From a virus, in the IMG/VR virus record IMGVR_UViG_3300031576_000031, positions 1,014-65,013 of that record: a stretch of 64,000 nucleotides of DNA; one strand, 5' to 3'. This document shows, in pieces, positions 1-37,422 of this stretch. Below the pieces are notes generated by a model. The model worked only from the letters and a program-made list of their open reading frames with translations. It had not been told where the DNA came from and made no database searches. The position numbers and the translations under genes are program-made. Position 1 is the first letter of the stretch, and every line of letters starts with the position of its first letter.

Positions 1-1958
1 TCAGACATCCCACCTTCTACATCGGCAAAAATATCCTTCAATTTGTTTGTAGCGGTCTCGAAGTCATCTCCGTTCTTGACAGAATCGACAAGCGAGGCTC
101 TAATAAGTTCCTTGGTATAGTTATTAACTTGACGGACTCTTGTAGCAGAATATTTCTCCATCCATTCCGTCAGTCTTTCGTTCTTCGAGTCAAAATCGGT
201 ATCGATGTCAAGTTGAGCAAAGATAAGTTTCCCATGCTTCTGAAGCATCCTCTCGGCTTCATTGATATAAACTTGCTGGAGTTTCTTGTTCTCATCATCC
301 CAATTGAGGACGATATCGATATTGATATCATCTTTGACAATTTCAATTTCGTCCTTTTCGTTCTTCTTTACCCTGTATTTTGTCCTCAGAGAATCTCTTA
401 GACGGCCAAATTGACCATCAAAGAAAGCTCGCATTCTACCAACTAGTTTTCGTTCATCTGGAGAGGCCGCTTTCTGCCAAGTTGTCCAAGAGCGCCAATT
501 CCTGACAGATCGCTTGTCGTTCCAATCCGGCTCCTCAACCTCGATCTTATCGAGATACAACCATTCTCTTTTGCCCATATTAGGCGAGGCTGTTTCTGGA
601 TGGGTTGAACGAATATTGTCCAGCCTAGAATTCTGGCCTAGCTTTGGTACTTGCGATGGATCGGAGAGACCTGCACTATAGCCATCATTCACGGTTCTTC
701 CGGGTTCATTCCCAGAATTAGTCGGATGGACTCCTGCGGATGTTGGAGCTAGTCCCACAGGAGCCCACCAATCCTCTCCCCAAGGCCGGGGCGGCAGACC
801 ATAATATCTCTCACGAACTTCATTGATCGTCATAATGCCATGAGTAGTGTTACTCTGTGCAATCTCAGACTTAATTTGTTCATCTTCGACCATTGCCTCA
901 ATGGAGCGGGTAAGAAATGTAATTTCGAACTTATCTTTATTCTCAGTTCCCTCTTTATTCAGCAACGTCTCATTGATCGACTCCGAGAACCATCTGAGTT
1001 TCGGTATGATGTTCGAGAAATAGAAGGACTTCTTCTGATTCAGATCCGTCCGCCAGTTGATGGGAACATCAAAGACTTCAAAGATTTCTTCTTTTGACAT
1101 TTTCCTTTGTTCAATAAATTGCATATCGTCATGGCGGCTTTCAATCGGCTTATACTTCATGCCCTCTTCAAGGATTGCTGGAATATGGGAATTCTTACCG
1201 CCGCGATGTCTCCGCATCCAGTTATTAATGAGTCTCTCATGAGCTTGAGGGCTTAGAGAGTAATCAGTTTCCAGAATACCTCCAGGTTCCGCGCCATTGA
1301 TGAAGAAGTTCTTGTTCCAAGTCTGCGCAAAGAAATCAAGTGTGATTCCAATCTGTGCCGCCATTGCAGGAGGCATACCCCAGTAGTCATCTTTAGGATC
1401 GATATATTTGAAATGAATTATCTCATCGGGTGAGAATAAGATTTCTTTGCCACTTTCAATCTCATACCGATATCCGGCAATCTTATATTTCGGATGAGGT
1501 TGAATTCTCATTAGATCCGGCCGAAGGATATAAATACCGATCAGATTCTCTTTATCGTCCCTGACGAGTTCCCAGAATGAATTGCCAGTAAGTTCAAGAT
1601 GAACCGAAGTTTTCTTTCTTACGTCGGAAAATGTTTCAAATGGATTGGGTTTCCTGATTACCCTATATCGGTAATCATCCTTGGAGATTTCCTTACCCTC
1701 ATTGGTAATCTGATAATCTACTGTCGAAAATGCCTGAGAGATGTCTCTAGCGCAAACATAAACCCATGGCTGAGTCCGGTAGAGATCAAGGTATGAGCCA
1801 AGGTCGCCAAGCCTACCTTTCCCACCATCATAGACACCATATCGGTCGGATTCCCACCGCTCAATATCGTCCATCTCGGCAGGTCTTAATTCCCGAAGCG
1901 GAACCGGTTCGGCCTTCTTAAACCCAAAGAAGCCGAAAATCTTATCCTTCAAACTCAT
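1..1958 (-). CDS. HK97-type portal protein with a C-terminal extension resembling a head-morphogenesis (MuF/SPP1 gp7) domain; partial, runs off the left edge
   Basis: Not in the ORF track because it has no stop inside the window. Hand translation from ATG at 1958 gives MSLKDKIFGFF...YRTQPWVYVCARDIS...KPNPFET...HLELTGNSFW...EIIHFK...YWGMPP...NGAEPGGIL...GIMTINEVRERY; frame checked at several points, no in-frame stop found. Directly downstream of terminase. Confidence 0.85.
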   Translation of the reverse strand, partial: MSLKDKIFGFFGFKKAEPVPLRELRPAEMDDIERWESDRYGVYDGGKGRLGDLGSYLDLYRTQPWVYVCARDISQAFSTVDYQITNEGKEISKDDYRYRVIRKPNPFETFSDVRKKTSVHLELTGNSFWELVRDDKENLIGIYILRPDLMRIQPHPKYKIAGYRYEIESGKEILFSPDEIIHFKYIDPKDDYWGMPPAMAAQIGITLDFFAQTWNKNFFINGAEPGGILETDYSLSPQAHERLINNWMRRHRGGKNSHIPAILEEGMKYKPIESRHDDMQFIEQRKMSKEEIFEVFDVPINWRTDLNQKKSFYFSNIIPKLRWFSESINETLLNKEGTENKDKFEITFLTRSIEAMVEDEQIKSEIAQSNTTHGIMTINEVRERYYGLPPRPWGEDWWAPVGLAPTSAGVHPTNSGNEPGRTVNDGYSAGLSDPSQVPKLGQNSRLDNIRSTHPETASPNMGKREWLYLDKIEVEEPDWNDKRSVRNWRSWTTWQKAASPDERKLVGRMRAFFDGQFGRLRDSLRTKYRVKKNEKDEIEIVKDDINIDIVLNWDDENKKLQQVYINEAERMLQKHGKLIFAQLDIDTDFDSKNERLTEWMEKYSATRVRQVNNYTKELIRASLVDSVKNGDDFETATNKLKDIFADVEGGMS

Positions 1959-1995
1959 TCTTATAGCCTTCTGGAAACTCTATTCACTTGGAGCA

Positions 1996-3648
1996 TTAGT
2001 CGTCATCTTCTTGGCTTAGATAGTCCCAGACATTGTTGATGAGAGGTTTCTCATCATCGATTCTGACCGGACCTGATTGAGACGCATCATCGGCCCCGTC
2101 TGGATTATATACTCTAATATTTGGCTCTCCACCGCCTTGATGTCTCAACCTGACTTCCCTATAACGCCAAGCGTCAAGGTGATGATCGCTGCAACTCGTG
2201 GCGATATCATCCAAATCTCTTTTGCTCCTTGTAGCTTCCTCGATTTCCTTTATAAAACCCTGACAATATTTCTGGTTTACAAATAGTTTCCTTCTGCCAG
2301 AATTATCCCTAAGCGTCCGCCTGCATATCGGCCAGCCCTCTTTGCGAGTAATCTTCTTAGTTGGAACAATTCTAAAAAAACTATTGTAATTATTAAAATT
2401 TCTGATCTCCTGCATTTGTGCAGAATCACCAACTTGCATTCTCGTATTCTTTATTCCTATATCTCTAACGAAATTAAGAATCGATTCTGCGGTATCGTTC
2501 GATGGCTTATGAACATAAGCTAGGGAGGCAAACATAATACTATTGCCTTCGTCATCCTCCTGCCAAATCTGGCAGACTGTGGGAGATTCCCCACCGTTAG
2601 TAAAATCAAATGCTAAATCGGTAGGACGATGAGGATTGTATTCATAATCGATTATATTAAATTTGCGATCCCACTCTGGAAAGAATTTATTCTGTCGTAC
2701 GGGTTCAAGACACTCCTTCTGTGCGATCCAAGTCGTTCTATCAGTGGTAAGGAATTTATTTATCGAATCCTCAATAGGGATGGAACCAGTTGATTTTGCC
2801 AAATCTCCACGACAACTCGGCAGAAGAGGGCATTCTCCACATTTGGAGTATGCCTCAATAATAATCGTCTCTCCCGGATTGTGAATATCCTCGACGTTAT
2901 AAATCTTTCTATCCTTCCCTCTACGCCATTCTGGACAGGGTTCAGAAACCTCCTTATAGCACCAACTTATAAACTTATAGGCATCCTTACCAGTTCTCTC
3001 CAAAAGTTTTTGCATGGTCCCATCAACAAACTTCCTAGTCGAAATATAGGCAATATGAGCATCATTGGTCTCATTCCCGCTTGGCATCATTCTAGCTTCT
3101 GTAATGACATCCTGTTCAATAAGCTCACACTCATCGATCCTGAGTTTCTGAGGATGCTGACCATTGGTAGATTCTACCGTTGCAACAACCTGATGGTACT
3201 TCGATCCATTGCGCAAAGTAATCAACCTTTTTAGCATCTTGTCAAGAATGCCACTTTCCATGACAATGGAGTTCTTCAAGTATCTTCTTACATAGGAAAA
3301 GCATTTCTCGGATTGCTCCCTGATGGCCCCCATACAAATTGTTTCACAATTGGGCTTTAACAACAATTCAGAAACAATCAACTTCGCCTCAGAGAGAGTT
3401 TTGAAGCCCTCTCTCGGGCCTAGAGCTACAATATTCTTACTCGAACTTTCCTTGTAATCAGGTAAGTCTATCTTATAGGATTCCCAAATGAAATCCCAAG
3501 GAGTTTGATGGAAATCACATATATTCTTGAATACCGTCTTCTCGCCAGTAAGGAGGTATAAGAATCGATATAGCTCTTGTTTTGTTTGAGGAGGATTTAA
3601 TAGGAAATTATATAATTCACTTGGCTTGACCTTCTTCTGGAAGGACAT
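1996..3648 (-). CDS. terL: Terminase large subunit
   Basis: 550 aa; Walker A-like GPREGFKT, Walker B-like LRIDECE, C-terminal nuclease-like acidic motifs (LAFDF, DHHLDAWRY); adjacent to portal. Confidence 0.9.
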   Translation of the reverse strand: MSFQKKVKPSELYNFLLNPPQTKQELYRFLYLLTGEKTVFKNICDFHQTPWDFIWESYKIDLPDYKESSSKNIVALGPREGFKTLSEAKLIVSELLLKPNCETICMGAIREQSEKCFSYVRRYLKNSIVMESGILDKMLKRLITLRNGSKYHQVVATVESTNGQHPQKLRIDECELIEQDVITEARMMPSGNETNDAHIAYISTRKFVDGTMQKLLERTGKDAYKFISWCYKEVSEPCPEWRRGKDRKIYNVEDIHNPGETIIIEAYSKCGECPLLPSCRGDLAKSTGSIPIEDSINKFLTTDRTTWIAQKECLEPVRQNKFFPEWDRKFNIIDYEYNPHRPTDLAFDFTNGGESPTVCQIWQEDDEGNSIMFASLAYVHKPSNDTAESILNFVRDIGIKNTRMQVGDSAQMQEIRNFNNYNSFFRIVPTKKITRKEGWPICRRTLRDNSGRRKLFVNQKYCQGFIKEIEEATRSKRDLDDIATSCSDHHLDAWRYREVRLRHQGGGEPNIRVYNPDGADDASQSGPVRIDDEKPLINNVWDYLSQEDDD

Positions 3649-4127
3649 AAGAATTTCATTACTCTTAGTAGTCTATAATCCCCAGAAACACCTGACAGAG
3701 CCTCGACTTTTAATGGTATTAATCATGTCAGCTTATATCAGTATTAACATCAAGTATACTCATCTTTATTTTTCTTTTCTTTTCATCTCTTTTATCCCTT
3801 CTCAATCATGGGCCTCCTCAGAGGCCACACATGGTAGATGATGAATCTACTTCTTCTCTTGTCTCTAGGAGACACTCACAAGCTAAATAATACACTAAAG
3901 AGGACAATTTCCCCCAGAACACGATTTTAGAAAAAATGTAACAAACATGGGTGAAATAGATACGAAACAACACCCACAGCCACCCGTAGTGGCGCATCGG
4001 AGCCGAAAACGGAACTATAAGAAAAAGCGAAGTTCAAATTTAATTGAATACTTTTCTTTGTAATGAATGTGATTATGTTTCGTCATACTGGTAGTAATCA
4101 GATGAAAGTAAGAAATATGCGCATCAT

Positions 4128-4203
4128 CCACTCGTAGCTCAATGGGCAGAGCAAGCTCTTTATAAGGGCTAGGTTGCGTGTTCGAATCGCGCCGGGTGGA
4201 CCA
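4128..4203 (+). tRNA. tRNA-Ile, anticodon UAU
   Basis: Cloverleaf by hand: acceptor CCACTCG/CGGGTGG, D stem GCTC/GAGC, anticodon stem AGCTC/GGGCT with loop TT-TAT-AA, T arm GCGTG-TTCGAAT-CGCGC, discriminator A, encoded CCA. Confidence 0.92.
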
Positions 4204-4212
4204 TGAAATTTG

Positions 4213-4225
4213 GTTCTTTGAAAAC
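4213..4225 (+). promoter_or_regulatory. boxA-like antitermination motif (GTTCTTTGAAAAC)
   Basis: Resembles the boxA-type motif of bacterial rRNA spacers; lies just after the tRNA and before the structured region. Sequence resemblance only. Confidence 0.3.
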
Positions 4226-4233
4226 CAGTATAA

Positions 4234-4432
4234 ATAACCCGATCCGGGGGCGCGGAAGCTATAGAGGCTGAAAGTGTGTCGTGAACTCCGACACAGGCGT
4301 AAGACTGTAACGACATAGAGGCGAGGATTTCCAAAGCACTTGCCATAGGATGGCGAAATATGAACCTGTAGTATTAGTCGTCGGTAAGTTGTAATGACTC
4401 CAATGACCCTCCGCCCCTCCGCATCGGGTTAT
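4234..4432 (+). ncRNA. Candidate structured ncRNA A (about 199 nt)
   Basis: Ends pair as an about 23-bp helix with 2 mismatches (4234-4256 with 4410-4432); internal hairpins TGTGTCG/CGACACA and GCCA/TGGC; no credible ORF. Confidence 0.55.
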
Positions 4433-4443
4433 AAGATTTAGTC

Positions 4444-4645
4444 CGGCATACAACAACGGACGAGGCTAAGGCCGGGTGGCCGTTCTGGTAACGGTGACAG
4501 TAGGGCGGATACCTACCAATCCCGGATGGGAAGCGTGCGGTTGACCATGTATGCCGTGATTCATGGAAGGAACGCCACGGATCGTATCTTCTGTCATGTA
4601 GAAGATCAGGGCTGTGGAAGTCAAAGTTTGAGTCTTTGCCGTGAG
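4444..4645 (+). ncRNA. Candidate structured ncRNA B (multi-helix, partly tRNA-like)
   Basis: CGGCATACA/TGTATGCCG (4444-4452 with 4548-4556) encloses CCGGG/CCCGG, CCGTT/AACGG and GTAGG/CCTAC hairpins; further hairpins ATCTTCT/AGAAGAT and CAAAG-TTTGAGT-CTTTG follow. Confidence 0.45.
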
Positions 4646-4660
4646 ATTCTATAATTACAT

Positions 4661-4735
4661 TGCGGGATTGGCTAATTGGTAAGCCGCCAGATTGTTACTC
4701 TGCTCATGGTAGTTCGACTCTACCTCCCGCAGCCA
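4661..4735 (+). tRNA. tRNA-Asn, anticodon GUU
   Basis: Acceptor TGCGGGA/TCCCGCA, D stem GGCT/AGCC, anticodon loop TT-GTT-AC, T arm GGTAG-TTCGACT-CTACC, discriminator G, encoded CCA. Confidence 0.93.
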
Positions 4736-4747
4736 AGAACTTATTAT

Positions 4748-5047
4748 ATGGCTGTAGAATGGTCTTATGACTGCGTAGGATTCGATTTAAGCCATTCTTA
4801 TCGTTTAACCCTGCCGATAGATGGGTATGCTATACAAACCATCGATTTTTGGAGAATTTCAATGATTAAGGACCGCAATTATGACCTGTTCGTAAGAGTT
4901 TGGGAGACATCTATCCCGAAGACTTGTATTACAAGCGAAACTCTATGTTTCCTTGTAGATGTCAGGAATAAAGTATGTAAACTCGTTTTTGGGTCTAATT
5001 ACAGGAAATATCTTAAAGAGTATCTGAAGGGATCTGGTATCAATTAG
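4748..5047 (+). CDS. Hypothetical protein
   Basis: Part of track ORF 4676..5047; start moved to the first ATG after the tRNA. Confidence 0.5.
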   Translation: MAVEWSYDCVGFDLSHSYRLTLPIDGYAIQTIDFWRISMIKDRNYDLFVRVWETSIPKTCITSETLCFLVDVRNKVCKLVFGSNYRKYLKEYLKGSGIN

Positions 5048-7564: not shown

Positions 7565-7583
7565 TCTCATAACTGTTATGAGA
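7565..7583. promoter_or_regulatory. Perfect palindrome TCTCATAAC-T-GTTATGAGA (operator-like)
   Basis: 9-bp arms with a 1-nt spacer, just left of the high-GC insert. Confidence 0.4.
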
Positions 7584-7669
7584 ATAAATAAACAAGCCCC
7601 AAGCCCTTCATCGCTCAGGATCAAGGCGCTGTACTGCCCCACCTGCGGAGGAACCGGAAGGAGGATGAT

Positions 7670-7978
7670 GTGACGGCCCAAACGCCGAGCGCGGAGGCGC
7701 TGAGCATCGTGCGCGGACTTGGCCTCCAGCTATCTGGTTGCTGTAGCGATTCGTGCGATGGGTTCGGGCATGATGAGGAACATGACGCGGTGAAAGACAT
7801 TGCCCTCGCCATTGACGCGGCCGTTGCGCGGGAGAGGGAGCGGGCGGCGGAGATCGCGGAAGGGTGGCTCCCAACCGGCATTCGTATCGAAGTCCATCCG
7901 CCGATCACGCCTGAACGGGCTGTAGAGATCACCGCTATTGGGATCGCCGCCGCCATCCGCAAAGGAGGAACGCCATGA
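7670..7978 (+). CDS. Hypothetical protein (GC insert)
   Basis: GGAGG RBS; ATGA overlap with the next gene. Confidence 0.65.
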   Translation: MTAQTPSAEALSIVRGLGLQLSGCCSDSCDGFGHDEEHDAVKDIALAIDAAVARERERAAEIAEGWLPTGIRIEVHPPITPERAVEITAIGIAAAIRKGGTP

Positions 7979-8265
7979 AGCCGACATGCTCCGACTGTGG
8001 AAGGCGGATCGCGAGGTGGGCGAAGGATGCGCTGGAGTCGATCTCGATTTGCGGGAGACACAAGAAGGTCGTGAAGCCGCGAAAGCCATTGAGGGCGTGG
8101 GCGGTTGTGTGCCGCACAGGGGCGATGCACTGGGCCTTCCACAACGGATTCGGAGATCGTGACAGGCTCTATTGCGAGAGCAATTTGAGGGCGTACGGAA
8201 ATCTCCCGTGCGCCCCCCACCGCGTCGTAGAGCTGGTCGAGAAGAGGACGAGGAGGAAGAAGTGA
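7975..8265 (+). CDS. Hypothetical protein (GC insert)
   Basis: GGAGG RBS; overlaps both neighbours. Confidence 0.6.
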   Translation: MKPTCSDCGRRIARWAKDALESISICGRHKKVVKPRKPLRAWAVVCRTGAMHWAFHNGFGDRDRLYCESNLRAYGNLPCAPHRVVELVEKRTRRKK

Positions 8266-8462
8266 TGACGATAGAAATGCGTAACCAGCTCGAACGGATT
8301 CTCGTCCGAAAGGAACACGCGCTCTGCACTCAGTGTTTCACGATAGAGCCCATTCACCCCGGGGATGGGACTCCGGCGACCGCGTTTATCAGCGCGCTGG
8401 AGCTGATGGCGTACCGTCACAGGGAATGCAAACCCGCCAATCGTGGAAAGGAGAAGCGATGA
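8262..8462 (+). CDS. Hypothetical protein (GC insert)
   Basis: Part of track ORF 8172..8462; start set at the GTGA overlap after AGGAGG. Confidence 0.55.
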   Translation: MMTIEMRNQLERILVRKEHALCTQCFTIEPIHPGDGTPATAFISALELMAYRHRECKPANRGKEKR

Positions 8463-8665
8463 TCGGATTGCCTGGTGGTCCGGAGCAGGAATGTCGCTAC
8501 GGACATAAGCTCGTTGTTCGCCTCGATAACGGATGCTGCTCGAAGAGGCTGGAGGATCTGCTGGGTGGGGTGTGCGATGACCGACCACGCACCTCGACAT
8601 CGTGCGCTGGTGCCCGCTATGCTTTATCGAGGAATGCAGGAGGTTTGGACTGTGACAATCTATGA
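8459..8665 (+). CDS. Cys-rich hypothetical protein (GC insert)
   Basis: AGGAG RBS, ATGA overlap; 3' part of track ORF 8333..8665. Confidence 0.45.
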   Translation: MIGLPGGPEQECRYGHKLVVRLDNGCCSKRLEDLLGGVCDDRPRTSTSCAGARYALSRNAGGLDCDNL

Positions 8666-8679
8666 GAAGGAGATTGACC

Positions 8680-8865
8680 ATGGAAGGTAAGAACCTGATC
8701 ACGTTCTGCCCAAAGCAGATGAAGTTGGCCGTAGAGTACTACCTCAAGACCGTGCTCATGACGCCGGAGGCGATGAAGGACGTTTTCGTGACCGACGTCC
8801 AGCAGGAGGGGGAGGAATTCATCGTGACCACGGAGTGGATTGAGAAGAAGGTTTTGCAGCCATGA
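8680..8865 (+). CDS. Hypothetical protein (GC insert)
   Basis: AAGGAG RBS before ATG 8680. Confidence 0.6.
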   Translation: MEGKNLITFCPKQMKLAVEYYLKTVLMTPEAMKDVFVTDVQQEGEEFIVTTEWIEKKVLQP

Positions 8866-9052
8866 CCGGCACGAACGACGAAGTCTGGGAAGCAGCCATG
8901 GGCGGGGACGACCTGCTGGTGCACAGTCAACGTGCCGAATGGCCACGACTTGATCTGCCTCCGCAACCGTGAGCTGGTGAGTGAGGGATAATGGTGAAAA
9001 TGGTACATAATTATATACGATAATATATCATAAAATATAGTTCTGCAACATA

Positions 9053-9517
9053 ATGAGTACTAAATTAAATGATCCAGTTTGGAATAAAAAACATAGTATG
9101 ATGGTAGAGAGAGATAATCGTTCTCCAGAACAAAAAGCCAAAGATGAAAAGATTGCGAATGAGGTAGAGTCAGAGATTTCTCATAATCCAAATCAACTTT
9201 ACGACATGAACTATACCAATCTGGTAGATAAGAATAAATGTCCTGCATTATATCGCTCACTTGAGCGATGGCTCATTTCCGAGAGGGAGAAACTTGAGAA
9301 ATGGAAGAAACATTATGAATCTATGCGAGAGGGTAATTTCGATAAAGCCAGTAAGATATACCGAGATATTATGGGAATCTTCGGTGAACCAATGACGGAG
9401 GATGTCAAACAGCGATTGAGAGAATGGAATGAAGAACATAAAGAAGAGATCAAACTCAAGAATAAAATGCGACGTGAGATAAAGGCCAGATATAAACAGA
9501 AGAAAAAGAGGAAATAG
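9053..9517 (+). CDS. Hypothetical protein, charged and helical
   Basis: 154-aa ORF after an AT-rich spacer. Confidence 0.7.
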   Translation: MSTKLNDPVWNKKHSMMVERDNRSPEQKAKDEKIANEVESEISHNPNQLYDMNYTNLVDKNKCPALYRSLERWLISEREKLEKWKKHYESMREGNFDKASKIYRDIMGIFGEPMTEDVKQRLREWNEEHKEEIKLKNKMRREIKARYKQKKKRK

Positions 9518-9526
9518 GGAGGCATT

Positions 9527-9688
9527 ATGGATCGTCAATTTGCGAATGATATTGAGTGGAATATAAATCAATTCATATCTGTGGGGATCTCTTTTGTTGT
9601 TATATGTCTCGGAGCCTTTGTAATAACTTGGGGCCTGTGCCGTCTAATAGATAGGCTTACCAGCAGAAAGGAGAAAAATAGTGATTGA
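9527..9688 (+). CDS. Small membrane protein
   Basis: Hand-translated 53 aa with one hydrophobic segment; GGAGG RBS. Confidence 0.55.
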   Translation: MDRQFANDIEWNINQFISVGISFVVICLGAFVITWGLCRLIDRLTSRKEKNSD

Positions 9689-10058
9689 ACTTGATGCCTT
9701 TATTACCTACGACCCTGAGACCGGCGAGATTACAAGTAAAGAGGCAATGTCCTTTAGGTTATGTTATAATGAGAAACCAAGAGTCTTCGCTATTGAATTT
9801 TTAGATCCATCTATTCACAAGTATATTCATGTTGAACTTGATACGCTTGAAAAGATCATCAGATCCGAAAAGGCATTGGCTGTAAAACTTTCTAAGAGGT
9901 GTAAAATGTTTGACCATCGCGCCAAGAAGATCCATCTCAAGAAGCTCAAGCGTCTGGCGAAGAGGAAGGCTATTTATTCCAATCGTCGAGAAGGACGTAG
10001 CCATGATGGACTAAAGGAAGAGGAGGCCAACTCTTATCGAAAGAAGCCGGTTAAGTAA
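9681..10058 (+). CDS. Hypothetical protein
   Basis: 125 aa, AAGGAG RBS. Confidence 0.65.
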   Translation: MIELDAFITYDPETGEITSKEAMSFRLCYNEKPRVFAIEFLDPSIHKYIHVELDTLEKIIRSEKALAVKLSKRCKMFDHRAKKIHLKKLKRLAKRKAIYSNRREGRSHDGLKEEEANSYRKKPVK

Positions 10059-33416: not shown

Positions 33417-33833
33417 TTAAACACCAGTGTTCTCGAATTGACTGCGAAGATTGCCAGCAATTGATACTAGACAGTCCTTGCGTTGACGGAAGGCTTCAAG
33501 AACCATTGAAGCTCTTAATTCAGAGTCTCGCGCATCCATTACGGCCTTCTCGGCCTCAATGACCCTACCATCCAGCCGGATGATATTCTTGATCTGATCC
33601 TCTGGTGGTTTCTTGGCAGAAGCCTCTCTGATGTCCCTATCGACTGTCGCAACGACTCTCTCATACTCATTCTCTACCCGCTCCCGCTCCAGTCTGAAAT
33701 GGCTTGAAGCCAGAGCTACTTGAAGGAACTTCCCGGGATGAGTTGAGAGATCCTGATTGATCTTGTTGAAATCATCAGAAATGGTCAGATCGTTCAGATC
33801 CACTTCGCACGAGCCCAGATTGATCTTGTTCAT
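33417..33833 (-). CDS. UvsY-like recombination mediator (tentative)
   Basis: Helical, about 138 aa, ends LEAFRQRKDCLVSIAGNLR; position between polymerase and SSB. Confidence 0.45.
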   Translation of the reverse strand: MNKINLGSCEVDLNDLTISDDFNKINQDLSTHPGKFLQVALASSHFRLERERVENEYERVVATVDRDIREASAKKPPEDQIKNIIRLDGRVIEAEKAVMDARDSELRASMVLEAFRQRKDCLVSIAGNLRSQFENTGV

Positions 33834-36800
33834 ATTCGCCTCCTAAAATTGAGTAAACTCTTTTGAATTCTTTCAAACCTTTATCGAAAAGGCCCACCAT
33901 CTCATCCCTATTGGAATGTAGAACACTTGAGGGATGAACACAATACGTCAACCAACACTTCCTTTCCTTGTCCCATTCTGTTGTCCCCGATAGACTCATT
34001 ATTCCACTGTCTTTCCCCTTAAAATAATAAAGAGACTTGTTCCCGAGAACCAGCACCAGTATCGGCCTAATGATGTCGAAAAGAGTAGTCAGATGTCTAC
34101 AGCCATCGATATAGTCAGTAGACTTCAAAAAATTGCCTTGGGGCTTACAGTGCACGACATTATCTATGTATACGGAATTCCTACTGATTCCTAGATCCCT
34201 GAGTTTTGAGAATAAGACCTGACCGCTTTTCCCGATGAGCGGCTTTCCCTTCTGATCTTCATTGTATCCTGGTGCCTCTGCTACGATGAGTACGTTCTGT
34301 TTGCCCTTCTCAAACGGAACTGGGGCCTTACATCCTTGTCTAAGATCGCAGTCTGTACAGGTCTTGATGGCATCTCTAATCGAGTCCAGAAATTCTCTCT
34401 TAGGACTGATATTCCTTATGACTCTAAGATTACTTTCGATTAAGGCGACTCTAGTGAGATCCTGATGGGAATAGGCATTGAGAGTATTCCTATTAACCAC
34501 CGAAACAATATCGCCATCAACTACCTCGTAATTTTCTCCGAGAACCTTACATATATCTTTACATGTATCTTCTATTTCAGTAACGATACTACCGTCATAG
34601 TTGAGATAGTTCTCGACAATAGGCTCTAATTCCATCTCACGAGCCTTTATCTTAGCAGTTTCATGTTTCTCTTTGGTCCCATATGTCTCATAAATCTCGT
34701 CAAAATTGCGCTTGTAAAGATCGCTATCGGAAAGGCTATCAAACGCACCGGAATGTAGGAGAGACTTTATCACCCTCTTGTTGACTGTTCTCCTTCCTAC
34801 AAGACCCATGAATCCATCTATAGTTCTGAAGCTGGCCCCATTGGACTTCAACTTAAAGATTTCATCCTTGGCCTTCTCTCCGGCATATTTGACTTCTTGT
34901 AGACCAGCCCTGAGAGCTTTAGGACCGGCAACAGTCCACCCCGACATTGACTCTAGGATATCTGGTCCAAGAATCTCTATCCCTATCCTTCGGGCTTCTC
35001 TAAGAGCAGAATCGAGATTTGTTATCCCTTCACTACTTTCACGGTCAGTAGAACCATGACTAAGATAGGCACAGATATATTCAGTAGGATAATGGATTTT
35101 AAGATACATCGTCCAATATGTAAGAAGTCCATAAGCAACAGCATGGCTACGGTTGAACGAATATAATCCGAATCCAAGGAGTTTCTCCCAAAGAATTCCG
35201 GCCTGTTCCCCTGATAAGGATTTATTGACTACACATCCATCAATAAACCTCTGGGAATATTCCCTGATCTTCTCAATACCTTTAGACTTGGCAATAATCT
35301 TGCGGATCTTATCTGCTTCCGCAGGAGTAAAACCGGCCAGATTAACAAGCAACTGGCTAATCTGTTCCTGATAGATTAACTGTCCACGGGTCTTTTGGAC
35401 AATCTCTTTATATCCATTACTTAGATATACTGGTTCTTTCTTGCCATGACGTACGAGAATATAATCATTAGCTTGACCGGCCTGAATCGGCCCCGGACGC
35501 CATAACGCCGTCAGAGCGGCCACGTCTTCAAAACTCTGAGGCTTCAATTCCTTACAGTACGATGTAAGAGAAGGGGTATTGATTTGAAATACAGTTGCCG
35601 TTTCACCCCTGCCCATCGCCTCATAAGTCTTTTCATCAAACAATTCCAACTTCGATAGATCAAGATTAGTCCCATTTCTTCTAATCAGGATCAAGGCTTC
35701 TTGTATTACAGAGAGAGTTGATAAGCCTAAAATATCTATCTTGATATAACCAAGGTCTTCAAGATCGTCCTTGTCCCAATTGATCGATTTCTCTCCGTCA
35801 GTCCCACTCACCAAATAGCATCTATTTGATTCTAGTAGAGAATTATTACTGACTACGTATCCTGCGGCATGGACTCCTACGCCACGAATCTGTCCTTCTA
35901 ACTTACTCGCGGCCATGACGACATCAGGATATTTCTTGGCAAACCCTTGGAATTCCTTAGATGATTCAAGAGTATCCTCAATGACATTGAGGACTCTAGC
36001 ATCGCTCTCATGTCGATAGATCAATGATTTGGCCGCCACATCTACTTCTTGCAAAGGAATCTCGAAGATCCTTGATACATCTCTCAGCGCCGATCTCCCA
36101 TAGCAAGCACTAAAAGTTGAGACGTGAGCTACGTTTCCATCTCCATACTTCTGTTTTAGGTATCTTTCAATCAGATTGCGTTCATGTGCGGCGATGTCTA
36201 CATCGATGTCTGGGTGGTCCCGCCTATCTTCACTTATGAATCTCTCAAAGAGAAGATCATGTTTGATGGGATCTATCTCTGTGATACCTAATAGATACGA
36301 TACAAGGCACCCCCCGGCGCTTCCTCGCGCTGGCCCGACCATGATGCCTTGTCCTTTGGCCCAGTTGATTACATCGGCCACTAGGAGCATATAGCGGACG
36401 AATCCCTTCTTGATGATTAGCTTAGACTCCTTATCCAGCCTGATCCAATATTCATCTCTACCCTCTAATCCACGTCTCTTCAATCCCTCTGCGCATTGTT
36501 GAAGGAAATATTCGTTTTCGTCCTCGACCTTTACAGGACAGGGTAGATCCAATGGATACTTCTGAAGATCAAAGTAGCATTTCTCTGCTACCTCGTTGGT
36601 ATTGAAGATACTATTGTCGGCCACTTCAGAATCCATTCCCATTTTTAGCATGGAATCATACATATCATCCCCATCTCGGAAGTAGTTCCTATGGGTAGAG
36701 AACTTCCAACGATGAGGATTATTCCATGTCATACCATGCTGGCCGAGGCAGATTACAAGTTCGTGTATCTTCCAGTCTTCCTGCCCACAGTAATGAATGT

Positions 36801-37422
36801 CATTTGTTAGAACATACTTCCTGCCCGCATTAACACATGCCTGATGGACGACTTTGTTAAGGTCATACTGGATATCCCAATCATCCAATGGCATCATCTC
36901 GCCATAGAAGTCTTCCTTGAAAGCATCGGAATAATCTTGGAATAACTTGATACCATCGCGGTTCTTGACGTTCCAGAACGGCGAAGATGAACATCCAGAA
37001 AGGATTACAACATTGCCAGCCCAACCGTTATCAATAGGCCAAGTTACAGGTAGGAACGCTCTCTTAGCCCTGCCGCTCTTACCAAGACCATAATTATTGG
37101 CATAGTTCAGGCCATTGATTAGTAATTCAAATCCCTTCTGGCTCTTGGCTAATGCCGTGAGATGGAGATTTTGTAGTTTCTTGTCTTCTTTGATCTTGTC
37201 GAACTCTTCGGCAAGATACAGCTCAACTCCGAAGATTGGTTTGACTCCATTAGCCTCACAGGCTCTCTTGTGGCGAATTACTCCCGACATCGAGCCATGG
37301 TCTGTTAAGCAGAGATACTCGTGTCCATTCTTCTTAGCTGTCTCGGCCAATGAGGTTATTTTGGCAGCACCATCCAAAAGCGATGCCTCGGAGTGGACGT
37401 GGCAATTAATGTACCTTCTCAT
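33775..37422 (-). CDS. dnaE: DNA polymerase III alpha (DnaE) with a C-terminal family-4 uracil-DNA glycosylase domain
   Basis: HVHSEASLLDG PHP start, GPARGSAGG, PDIDVD, KIDILGL, FNRSHAVAY; then CTDCDLRQGC, AEAPGYNED, GKSG, NVVHCKP, HPSSVL. Confidence 0.93.
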   Translation of the reverse strand: MRRYINCHVHSEASLLDGAAKITSLAETAKKNGHEYLCLTDHGSMSGVIRHKRACEANGVKPIFGVELYLAEEFDKIKEDKKLQNLHLTALAKSQKGFELLINGLNYANNYGLGKSGRAKRAFLPVTWPIDNGWAGNVVILSGCSSSPFWNVKNRDGIKLFQDYSDAFKEDFYGEMMPLDDWDIQYDLNKVVHQACVNAGRKYVLTNDIHYCGQEDWKIHELVICLGQHGMTWNNPHRWKFSTHRNYFRDGDDMYDSMLKMGMDSEVADNSIFNTNEVAEKCYFDLQKYPLDLPCPVKVEDENEYFLQQCAEGLKRRGLEGRDEYWIRLDKESKLIIKKGFVRYMLLVADVINWAKGQGIMVGPARGSAGGCLVSYLLGITEIDPIKHDLLFERFISEDRRDHPDIDVDIAAHERNLIERYLKQKYGDGNVAHVSTFSACYGRSALRDVSRIFEIPLQEVDVAAKSLIYRHESDARVLNVIEDTLESSKEFQGFAKKYPDVVMAASKLEGQIRGVGVHAAGYVVSNNSLLESNRCYLVSGTDGEKSINWDKDDLEDLGYIKIDILGLSTLSVIQEALILIRRNGTNLDLSKLELFDEKTYEAMGRGETATVFQINTPSLTSYCKELKPQSFEDVAALTALWRPGPIQAGQANDYILVRHGKKEPVYLSNGYKEIVQKTRGQLIYQEQISQLLVNLAGFTPAEADKIRKIIAKSKGIEKIREYSQRFIDGCVVNKSLSGEQAGILWEKLLGFGLYSFNRSHAVAYGLLTYWTMYLKIHYPTEYICAYLSHGSTDRESSEGITNLDSALREARRIGIEILGPDILESMSGWTVAGPKALRAGLQEVKYAGEKAKDEIFKLKSNGASFRTIDGFMGLVGRRTVNKRVIKSLLHSGAFDSLSDSDLYKRNFDEIYETYGTKEKHETAKIKAREMELEPIVENYLNYDGSIVTEIEDTCKDICKVLGENYEVVDGDIVSVVNRNTLNAYSHQDLTRVALIESNLRVIRNISPKREFLDSIRDAIKTCTDCDLRQGCKAPVPFEKGKQNVLIVAEAPGYNEDQKGKPLIGKSGQVLFSKLRDLGISRNSVYIDNVVHCKPQGNFLKSTDYIDGCRHLTTLFDIIRPILVLVLGNKSLYYFKGKDSGIMSLSGTTEWDKERKCWLTYCVHPSSVLHSNRDEMVGLFDKGLKEFKRVYSILGGEYEQDQSGLVRSGSERSDHF

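Follow-up and report, generated by a model that had tools for sequence, protein, structure and literature searches.

A helix-closed element between tRNA genes in an uncultured phage from a cave, a candidate small RNA of a phage tRNA operon

The DNA between the only two tRNA genes detected on a contig of an uncultured cave phage contains a 199-nt element closed by a long helix. This element is real, statistically unusual and outside the catalogued RNA families, and it is probably a further example of the stable RNAs that accompany phage tRNA clusters. The interpretation that we favor, with a little less than even confidence, is that it would be one module of a small phage tRNA operon, released as a stable small RNA, by analogy with the stable RNAs of phage T5.

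RESULTS

The element lies in gene-free DNA between two tRNA genes

The window, i.e., the whole 64-kb (64,000-nt) stretch of DNA that was analyzed, comes from a 73.4-kb IMG/VR phage contig with an estimated completeness of 53%. Genes for a portal protein and the large terminase occupy positions 3 to 3648 on the minus strand, and the contig also harbors genes for an SbcC-like nuclease, an RNA ligase and a dCMP deaminase. Exactly two tRNA genes are present in the contig, both on the plus strand, and 479 nt separate the terminase gene from the first of them. The element is located within the 457-nt gene-free gap between tRNA-Ile(UAU) and tRNA-Asn(GUU), in the orientation of the tRNAs. A preliminary description made from the sequence without database searches had reported an unannotated element there, and the absence of genes in the gap, the orientation shared with both tRNAs and the significance of the long helix bear this out. 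The features of the region are the following.

4128..4203, + strand: tRNA-Ile, anticodon UAU, CCA encoded (ARAGORN; Rfam tRNA, 60.2 bits), upstream neighbor of the element
4204..4233, + strand: AT-rich linker, 27% GC, with a small GGTT/AACC hairpin; holds a "boxA-like" motif
4234..4256, + strand: 5' arm of the closing helix, 70% GC
4257..4409, + strand: enclosed segment of 153 nt, 46% GC; predicted branched fold, poorly defined
4275..4295, + strand: 7-bp perfect hairpin TGTGTCG/CGACACA with a 7-nt loop, in the minimum-energy and centroid folds
4340..4356, + strand: hairpin around GCCAT-AGG-ATGGC, 7 pairs in the minimum-energy fold
4377..4407, + strand: 3' hairpin just before the 3' arm, GTCGT with ATGAC, in the minimum-energy and centroid folds
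4410..4432, + strand: 3' arm of the closing helix, 65% GC
4433..4440, + strand: AT-rich linker of 8 nt, 12% GC, leading to the next structured module
4441..4560, + strand: second structured module (module 2), 59% GC, with a closing helix and four hairpins; predicted fold well defined
4628..4655, + strand: sigma-70-like promoter match TTGAGT-16 nt-TATAAT, 10/12, a consensus match only; ends 6 nt before tRNA-Asn
4661..4735, + strand: tRNA-Asn, anticodon GUU, CCA encoded (ARAGORN; Rfam), downstream neighbor of the element

No gene was called on either strand between positions 3649 and 4861 of the window in an independent ENA assembly (L070, positions 8788 to 10000). Over 13.6 kb, this assembly and the window disagree at 4 positions, and they are identical across the element, indicating that the sequence of the latter is not an assembly artifact. 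One sequencing run is listed as containing this DNA, a cave metagenome, and no RNA run is listed. A single contig of that run spans the stretch from end to end, free of joints and inversions, bearing in mind that contigs cannot exclude variants.

Some other features of the window were recorded. The interval from 3649 to 4127 is devoid of a small-terminase-sized gene upstream of the large terminase gene and the tRNA/RNA module is found there instead, while relatives have an open reading frame (ORF) of 150 to 210 aa at that position. The small ORF that follows tRNA-Asn (4748 to 5047) is an orphan for which no relatives were found. The 5' part of tRNA-Asn forms with the last codons of the next small ORF a 17-nt inverted repeat (4665-4681/5038-5054, 15/17 pairs), of a quality that chance repeats in the window also reach. 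Farther on, an island of about 1.4 kb (7565 to 8990) has a GC content of roughly 60%, compared with 43.5% for the genome, and contains ORFs that overlap on both strands; there was no Pfam match for the two ORFs tested and no Rfam match. Finally, a DnaE-type polymerase (33775 to 37422) has PHP, Pol III alpha, finger and HhH domains together with a uracil-DNA glycosylase superfamily domain at residues 1041 to 1177.

The closing helix is unusual, and the enclosed segment is not

The arms of the closing helix (4234-4256/4410-4432) face each other over 23 positions, with 20 Watson-Crick pairs, one G-U pair and two C-C mismatches. Starting from the ends of the element, 10 perfect pairs are followed by a C-C mismatch, 6 pairs including the G-U pair, the second C-C mismatch and 5 pairs. 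A repeat search recovered the helix as first described, with the same coordinates, its 10 perfect bp and its extension to approximately 23 bp with two mismatches. Of all inverted repeats in the window it is the top-ranking one, and no other site there has at least 20/23 Watson-Crick pairs within 450 nt. When the window was simulated 200 times with a first-order Markov model, 4 simulations contained an equally good repeat, as did 3 of 200 block shuffles, which amounts to about 2% per 64-kb window. The fold energy of the whole 199 nt is -70.4 kcal/mol (z = -3.1), and the minus strand gives the same value, showing no strand preference overall.

We analyzed the enclosed 153 nt without the arms. 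Their predicted energy is -36.6 kcal/mol, compared with a shuffle mean of -35.4 kcal/mol (z = -0.30 on the plus strand and +0.48 on the minus strand), and the plus strand is more stable than the minus strand by 6.5 kcal/mol. Their ensemble is diffuse, with a frequency of 0.002 for the minimum-energy fold. Only three features persist in the centroid, namely the closing helix, the hairpin at 4275-4295 and the 3' hairpin, most inner helices being absent from it. In these folding models, the interior of the element looks ordinary, and the whole thermodynamic signal comes from the closing helix.

Three helices had been reported in the interior, and their complementary segments are all present: TGTGTCG/CGACACA (4275-4281/4289-4295), GCCAT/ATGGC (4342-4346/4350-4354) and ACGAC/GTCGT (4310-4314/4377-4381). 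Nevertheless, the inner part is no more stable than shuffled sequences, and the ACGAC/GTCGT pairing does not form in the minimum-energy fold, in which GTCGT pairs with ATGAC. GTCGT has thus two competing partners, ATGAC in the predicted fold and ACGAC in the preliminary description. A 7-bp hairpin like TGTGTCG/CGACACA occurs in 4.6% of shuffles, which makes it mildly unusual. The reported repetition of ATAGAGGC is also present, with copies at 4261 and 4315, but at chance level: 18% of the shuffled elements contain a repeated 8-mer, and the window has 4 copies of ATAGAGGC for 2.55 expected. The two other copies are in a coding region and share no wider similarity.

GC-rich modules alternate with AT-rich linkers

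The GC content goes up and down along the region, from 57% in tRNA-Ile to 27% in the first linker, 51% in the element (65 to 70% in its arms), 12% in the second linker, 59% in module 2 and 53% in tRNA-Asn. For reference, it is 36% in nearby non-coding DNA and 43.5% in the window. Both the GC and the AT skews of the 3900-4700 region are positive, like those of the plus-strand genes to its right.

Module 2 has predicted fold energies of -48.8 kcal/mol on the plus strand and -38.7 kcal/mol on the minus strand (z = -2.7), and its minimum-energy fold is also the centroid. According to these predictions, module 2 (4441-4560) is better supported as a structured RNA than the 199-nt element that had been flagged. 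It has no Rfam match, and a 21-mer taken from it had no match in IMG/VR.

The preliminary description had argued for co-transcription of the element with the tRNAs on the basis of the boxA-like motif in the upstream linker, an argument that we do not retain. Aligned by hand, the motif agrees with the boxA of Escherichia coli at 9/13 positions only. The window contains 24 sites with no more than 3 mismatches to boxA, which is the number expected by chance, and the motif is not among them. As the sigma-70-like promoter match ends 6 nt before tRNA-Asn, this tRNA may possess its own transcription start, and the two tRNAs may not form one unit. The DNA immediately before tRNA-Ile yielded no sigma-70-like promoter. 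For these two reasons, we can only assume that the whole gap is co-transcribed.

The element matches no known RNA family

At the gathering thresholds, Rfam identified the two tRNAs only in the window. With the threshold relaxed to an E value of 10, cmscan of the 3800-5000 region returned the two tRNAs and chance-level matches, including one to U6 (E = 2.7) over part of the element. No known family was thus recognized in the element, as the preliminary description had anticipated. The lack of an Rfam match both at the gathering thresholds and at E ≤ 10 excludes, as far as sequence models can recognize them, 6S RNA, GOLLD, ROOL, Y RNA, RNase P RNA, tmRNA, riboswitches and the known small ribozymes. 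The likeness to GOLLD and ROOL that had been suggested was not borne out, with no match to either at E ≤ 10. Those RNAs are several-fold larger, reaching hundreds of nucleotides, and the element has 199 nt in a gap of 457 nt.

Relaxed ARAGORN searches for an extra tRNA or tmRNA yielded nothing credible inside the element. A low-threshold prediction on the opposite strand, a "tRNA-SeC with a 385-nt intron" at 3823 to 4301 of the window, overlaps the element and was treated as spurious. Similarly, positions 4234 to 4432 show no canonical T-loop that would indicate a tRNA-like frame, and the Rfam tRNA model found nothing there at E ≤ 10.

Several other candidates were considered and rejected. A retron msr-msd RNA was dismissed because a reverse transcriptase is absent from the contig (no RVT_1 match at E ≤ 1), even though the 5' arm is immediately followed by an AGC triplet. 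In the case of RNase P RNA, GAGGCTGAAAGT is only loosely similar to the conserved GAGGAAAGUCC and sits in a local hairpin, and there is no Rfam match. The core motifs of hammerhead, HDV-like and theta ribozymes are missing, again with no Rfam match. Just three GGA motifs are found, too few for a CsrB-like sponge, and the mismatches of the closing helix are 1x1 loops rather than the 3-nt bulges of archaeal bulge-helix-bulge circularization. A comparison of the gap with the rest of the contig for targets in trans revealed no complementarity of 13 nt or more.

No homologs were found in related phages or sequence collections

The terminase was used to find related phages. A search with the single protein found no IMG/VR relative, and in 5.8 billion protein clusters the nearest relatives were 55% identical. 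An alignment-based scan provided 59 IMG/VR loci and 13 JGI loci, and seven ENA/Logan contigs of relatives were also used. Searches of 62 of these loci with the gap, using nhmmer and blastn, found nothing. R1, a covariance model built from the single sequence, detected only the element itself when it was run against 31 related loci, 14 whole IMG/VR records and the T5 tRNA region, and blastn in distant mode against 50,697 phage records returned tRNA fragments only.

Pattern searches gave similar results. The left-arm pattern had two chance matches in IMG/VR, within GC-rich coding DNA. There were no matches to the two-arm pattern in 185,579 reference genomes or in the JGI metagenomes, to a junction 20-mer in the reference genome contigs, or to a motif-plus-hairpin pattern in IMG/VR. 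In 340 kb of the relatives' loci, no inverted repeat has at least 18/20 pairs. The preliminary description had called for a collection of homologs; none was found among the terminase relatives, in IMG/VR, in the JGI metagenomes or in the reference genomes, and the element appears to be a single-genome orphan among the collections searched.

Relatives carry other RNA genes next to the terminase gene

In one relative (L063), whose terminase is 53% identical, tRNA-Ile(UAU) and tRNA-Asn(GUU) are found in the same order, position and orientation with respect to the terminase gene, 14 nt apart. This pair is followed by tRNA-Trp, four Y-RNA-like repeats and a TROVE/Ro60 gene. The tRNAs, the four-repeat array and the Ro60 gene succeed each other over L063:4250-5030 (minus strand) and L063:2633-4243. 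Each repeat opens with approximately GGGCTG...GAGGTTACTTC and closes with AATTGCC, and one of them has a tRNA-like insert with a GGTTCGATTCC T-arm. The array looks like a phage Y-RNA array, and Rfam did not detect the repeats at E ≤ 1.

Other relatives have differing sets of tRNAs and small genes beside the terminase gene. As L063 and these relatives differ in the tRNAs, RNAs and small genes that they carry there, the terminase-adjacent region is a variable RNA-gene island in this phage group, and the 457-nt gap is either a lineage-specific gain in our phage or the result of a loss elsewhere.

Two further observations were made in relatives. In one of them (L069:20-300), two tRNA-like sequences with acceptor-like ends, T-arms (GAGGGTTCAACCCCCTC and GGGTGCAACTCCCGG) and large internal insertions were identified by eye upstream of tRNA-Arg and tRNA-Ile(UAU); ARAGORN did not call them. 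In another (P0007), the terminase has 904 aa, is longer by approximately 350 residues and carries Pfam PF14890, which we take to be an intein-type family; this would suggest an intein inserted in that terminase.

DISCUSSION

Our analyses favor the reading of the element as an RNA, because its significant helix sits in the 457-nt gap between the contig's only two tRNAs, because GC-rich modules alternate with AT-rich linkers in the style of a tRNA operon, and because the skews across 3900-4700 match those of plus-strand genes. The strand-specific features point in the same direction, since the G-U pair of the closing helix and the inner G-U pairs exist on the plus strand only, and the inner part and module 2 are predicted to be more stable on that strand by 6.5 and 10 kcal/mol, respectively. 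The T5 record, which annotates stable RNAs among the tRNAs, also argues for this reading. Finally, RNA cargo next to these tRNAs seems to be a feature of the phage group, as the same pair in L063 precedes small structured RNAs and Ro60.

The transcription, strand, processing, stability and trans function that we infer for the element would be as follows. The plus strand would be transcribed downstream of tRNA-Ile(UAU) and together with it, and the 5' and 3' ends of the element would pair in the precursor to form the GC-rich helix of 23 positions. The precursor would be cut in the flanking AT-rich, single-stranded linkers, as by RNase E and RNase P in tRNA operons, or alternatively within the long duplex by RNase III. 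The released RNA of approximately 150 to 200 nt, with its ends shielded by the helix, would be expected to be stable. Its role in trans would most likely be that of a protein-binding or decoy RNA, the default for such an architecture.

Other observations argue against the small-RNA reading. There is no homolog in anything searched and no covariation support. According to the folding models, the inner 153 nt are no better than random and the ensemble is diffuse, and the element folds equally well on both strands (-70.4 kcal/mol each). A promoter match before tRNA-Asn and none just upstream of tRNA-Ile would leave a single operon unsupported, and nothing comparable to the long inverted repeat appears in the 340 kb of the relatives' loci.

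The element might instead be a cis-acting stem with a role in processing or insulation. It would either be cut by RNase III or keep the folding of tRNA-Ile apart from that of the next module, the 153 nt being a discarded spacer. We regard this explanation as unlikely. It would account for a thermodynamic signal that resides entirely in the closing helix, around an inside that resembles shuffled sequence, and for a duplex whose length, at least about 20 pairs, fits an RNase III substrate. The classical substrate of RNase III is a duplex of approximately 20 or more pairs, as in pre-rRNA stems and the early sites of T7. However, the inner part has a higher GC content than nearby non-coding DNA (46% versus 36%) and contains a 7-bp perfect hairpin of a kind found in only 4.6% of shuffles, and the relatives process adjacent tRNAs without any such stem.

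A DNA-level feature, such as MITE-like terminal inverted repeats, a recombination scar or an invertible segment between the two tRNA genes, appears quite improbable to us. The 23-nt imperfect inverted repeats around an ordinary-looking 153-bp segment fit this model, and as the Ile and Asn genes of L063 are 14 nt apart, the 457 nt in our phage look like an insertion or a lineage-specific gain. Nevertheless, there is one copy in the 73-kb contig, no target-site duplication of at least 3 nt is seen (flanks ...GTATAA / AAGATT...), and the two-arm pattern is absent from the 185,579 reference genomes and the JGI metagenomes, with only the two chance matches to the left arm in IMG/VR. In addition, the contig, which is incomplete, contains no Phage_integrase or Resolvase match at E ≤ 1 and no reverse transcriptase. 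For an invertible DNA switch in particular, no tyrosine or serine recombinase was detected at E ≤ 1 in this incomplete contig.

It may also be that the element has no function and is a fortuitous inverted repeat in the decaying spacer of a shrinking tRNA cluster. Its orphan sequence, the lack of significance of its inner fold, the repeated 8-mer and boxA likeness at chance level, and the approximately 2% of random 64-kb windows that hold an equally good repeat are all consistent with this possibility, to which we give little credence. That 2% is for the whole window, however. Since the gap makes up less than 1% of it, the joint chance of such a repeat and of its location in the gap should be far lower, on the order of 1e-4 by our own estimate. 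Furthermore, arms of 65 to 70% GC would be out of keeping with a genome of 43.5% GC.

We find it very improbable that the element is a Y-RNA-like partner of a phage Ro60 protein, binding it through the long terminal stem, with the protein encoded in the part of the genome that the contig lacks. This idea stems from L063 (53% terminase identity), where the same tRNA pair precedes four Y-RNA-like repeats and a Ro60 gene. It is helped by the fact that the contig is just 53% complete, and the absence of an Rfam match in our phage is weak evidence against it given that Rfam misses the L063 repeats. Nevertheless, no TROVE match was obtained at E ≤ 1 in the 73-kb contig, while the control genomes were matched, and the 11-mer common to the L063 repeats is missing from the gap. 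The characterized Y RNAs have 80 to 130 nt, a GNCGAA(N0-1)G motif, and T-arm and D-arm-like stem-loops (PMC4201824). Positions 4234 to 4432 hold neither that motif, the nearest sequence being GGCGAAAT, nor a T-arm, and their 199 nt exceed that size range. A 6S-like RNA polymerase decoy, proposed in the preliminary description for the length of approximately 200 nt and the long closing stem, has scarcely any credibility left, as no 6S-family match appeared at E ≤ 10 and the predicted plus-strand fold has several branches instead of the rod and central bubble of 6S RNA.

Returning to the reading as a small RNA of the tRNA operon, a bolder version, which we consider distinctly unlikely, is that the element, probably with the 120-nt module 2, founds a new class of phage small RNAs. 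Its members would be helix-clamped RNAs of approximately 200 nt acting as protein-binding or decoy RNAs in RNA quality control or counter-defense. If this were true, the new-class RNA would lie in the terminase-adjacent "RNA island" in which relatives carry Y RNAs and Ro60. More generally, the stable RNAs of the T4 and T5 tRNA clusters have been known for decades, with their function unexplained, and structurally different examples widen that class. Together with the Y RNAs and Ro60 of the relatives, the element suggests that phages in general accommodate RNA cargo in the DNA beside their tRNAs.

Comparison with known systems

The element has in common with 6S RNA a size of approximately 200 nt and a long closing stem. 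It differs from it by the lack of an Rfam 6S match and of a rod with a central bubble, both its minimum-energy and its centroid folds being branched. Like YrlA and YrlB with Ro60 (PMC4201824), it has a terminal stem made of its 5' and 3' ends, and relatives have Ro60 by the same tRNAs; in contrast, the contig is devoid of Ro60, and the element is longer and has neither the conserved motifs nor a tRNA-like domain. Its terminal inverted repeats of approximately 23 nt and its non-coding segment of approximately 150 bp are reminiscent of MITEs, but it lacks a clear target-site duplication, occurs once in the contig and was not encountered in the other collections searched.

The known RNase III processing stems include those of pre-16S and pre-23S rRNA, the T7 early-region sites and the lambda N leader. 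They share with the closing helix a near-perfect duplex of approximately two helical turns, with small internal mismatches, that flanks an RNA in a polycistronic precursor. In our case, the stem is predicted from the sequence, the 153 nt that it encloses have no recognized identity, and a boxA antitermination context is unsupported.

The stable RNAs of phage tRNA clusters include the species 1 and 2 RNAs of T4 (rnaC and rnaD) as well as those of T5. The T5 RNAs have been seen as transcripts, whereas the element is known from its sequence alone. The GenBank record of T5 (AY543070) annotates eight "stable RNAs with unknown functions" among the tRNAs. RNA2H, RNAI, RNAIII, RNAIV and the tRNA-like RNA1 and RNA2 of that record, with sizes of 100 to 170 nt, resemble the element in being located beside or between tRNAs in the same orientation. 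The element has no sequence or structure match to them (R1 model against the T5 tRNA region; blastn), and unlike RNA1, which has a tRNA-like frame, it has no T-arm or cloverleaf frame. RNA2H (172 nt) is predicted to form a 10-bp closing helix and three arms (z = -3.0). In both cases the paired ends would close around several arms, and the closing helix of the element is more than twice as long as that of RNA2H. Lying in a tRNA cluster, on the strand of the tRNAs and in gene-free DNA, the element has the location of a phage tRNA-cluster stable RNA.
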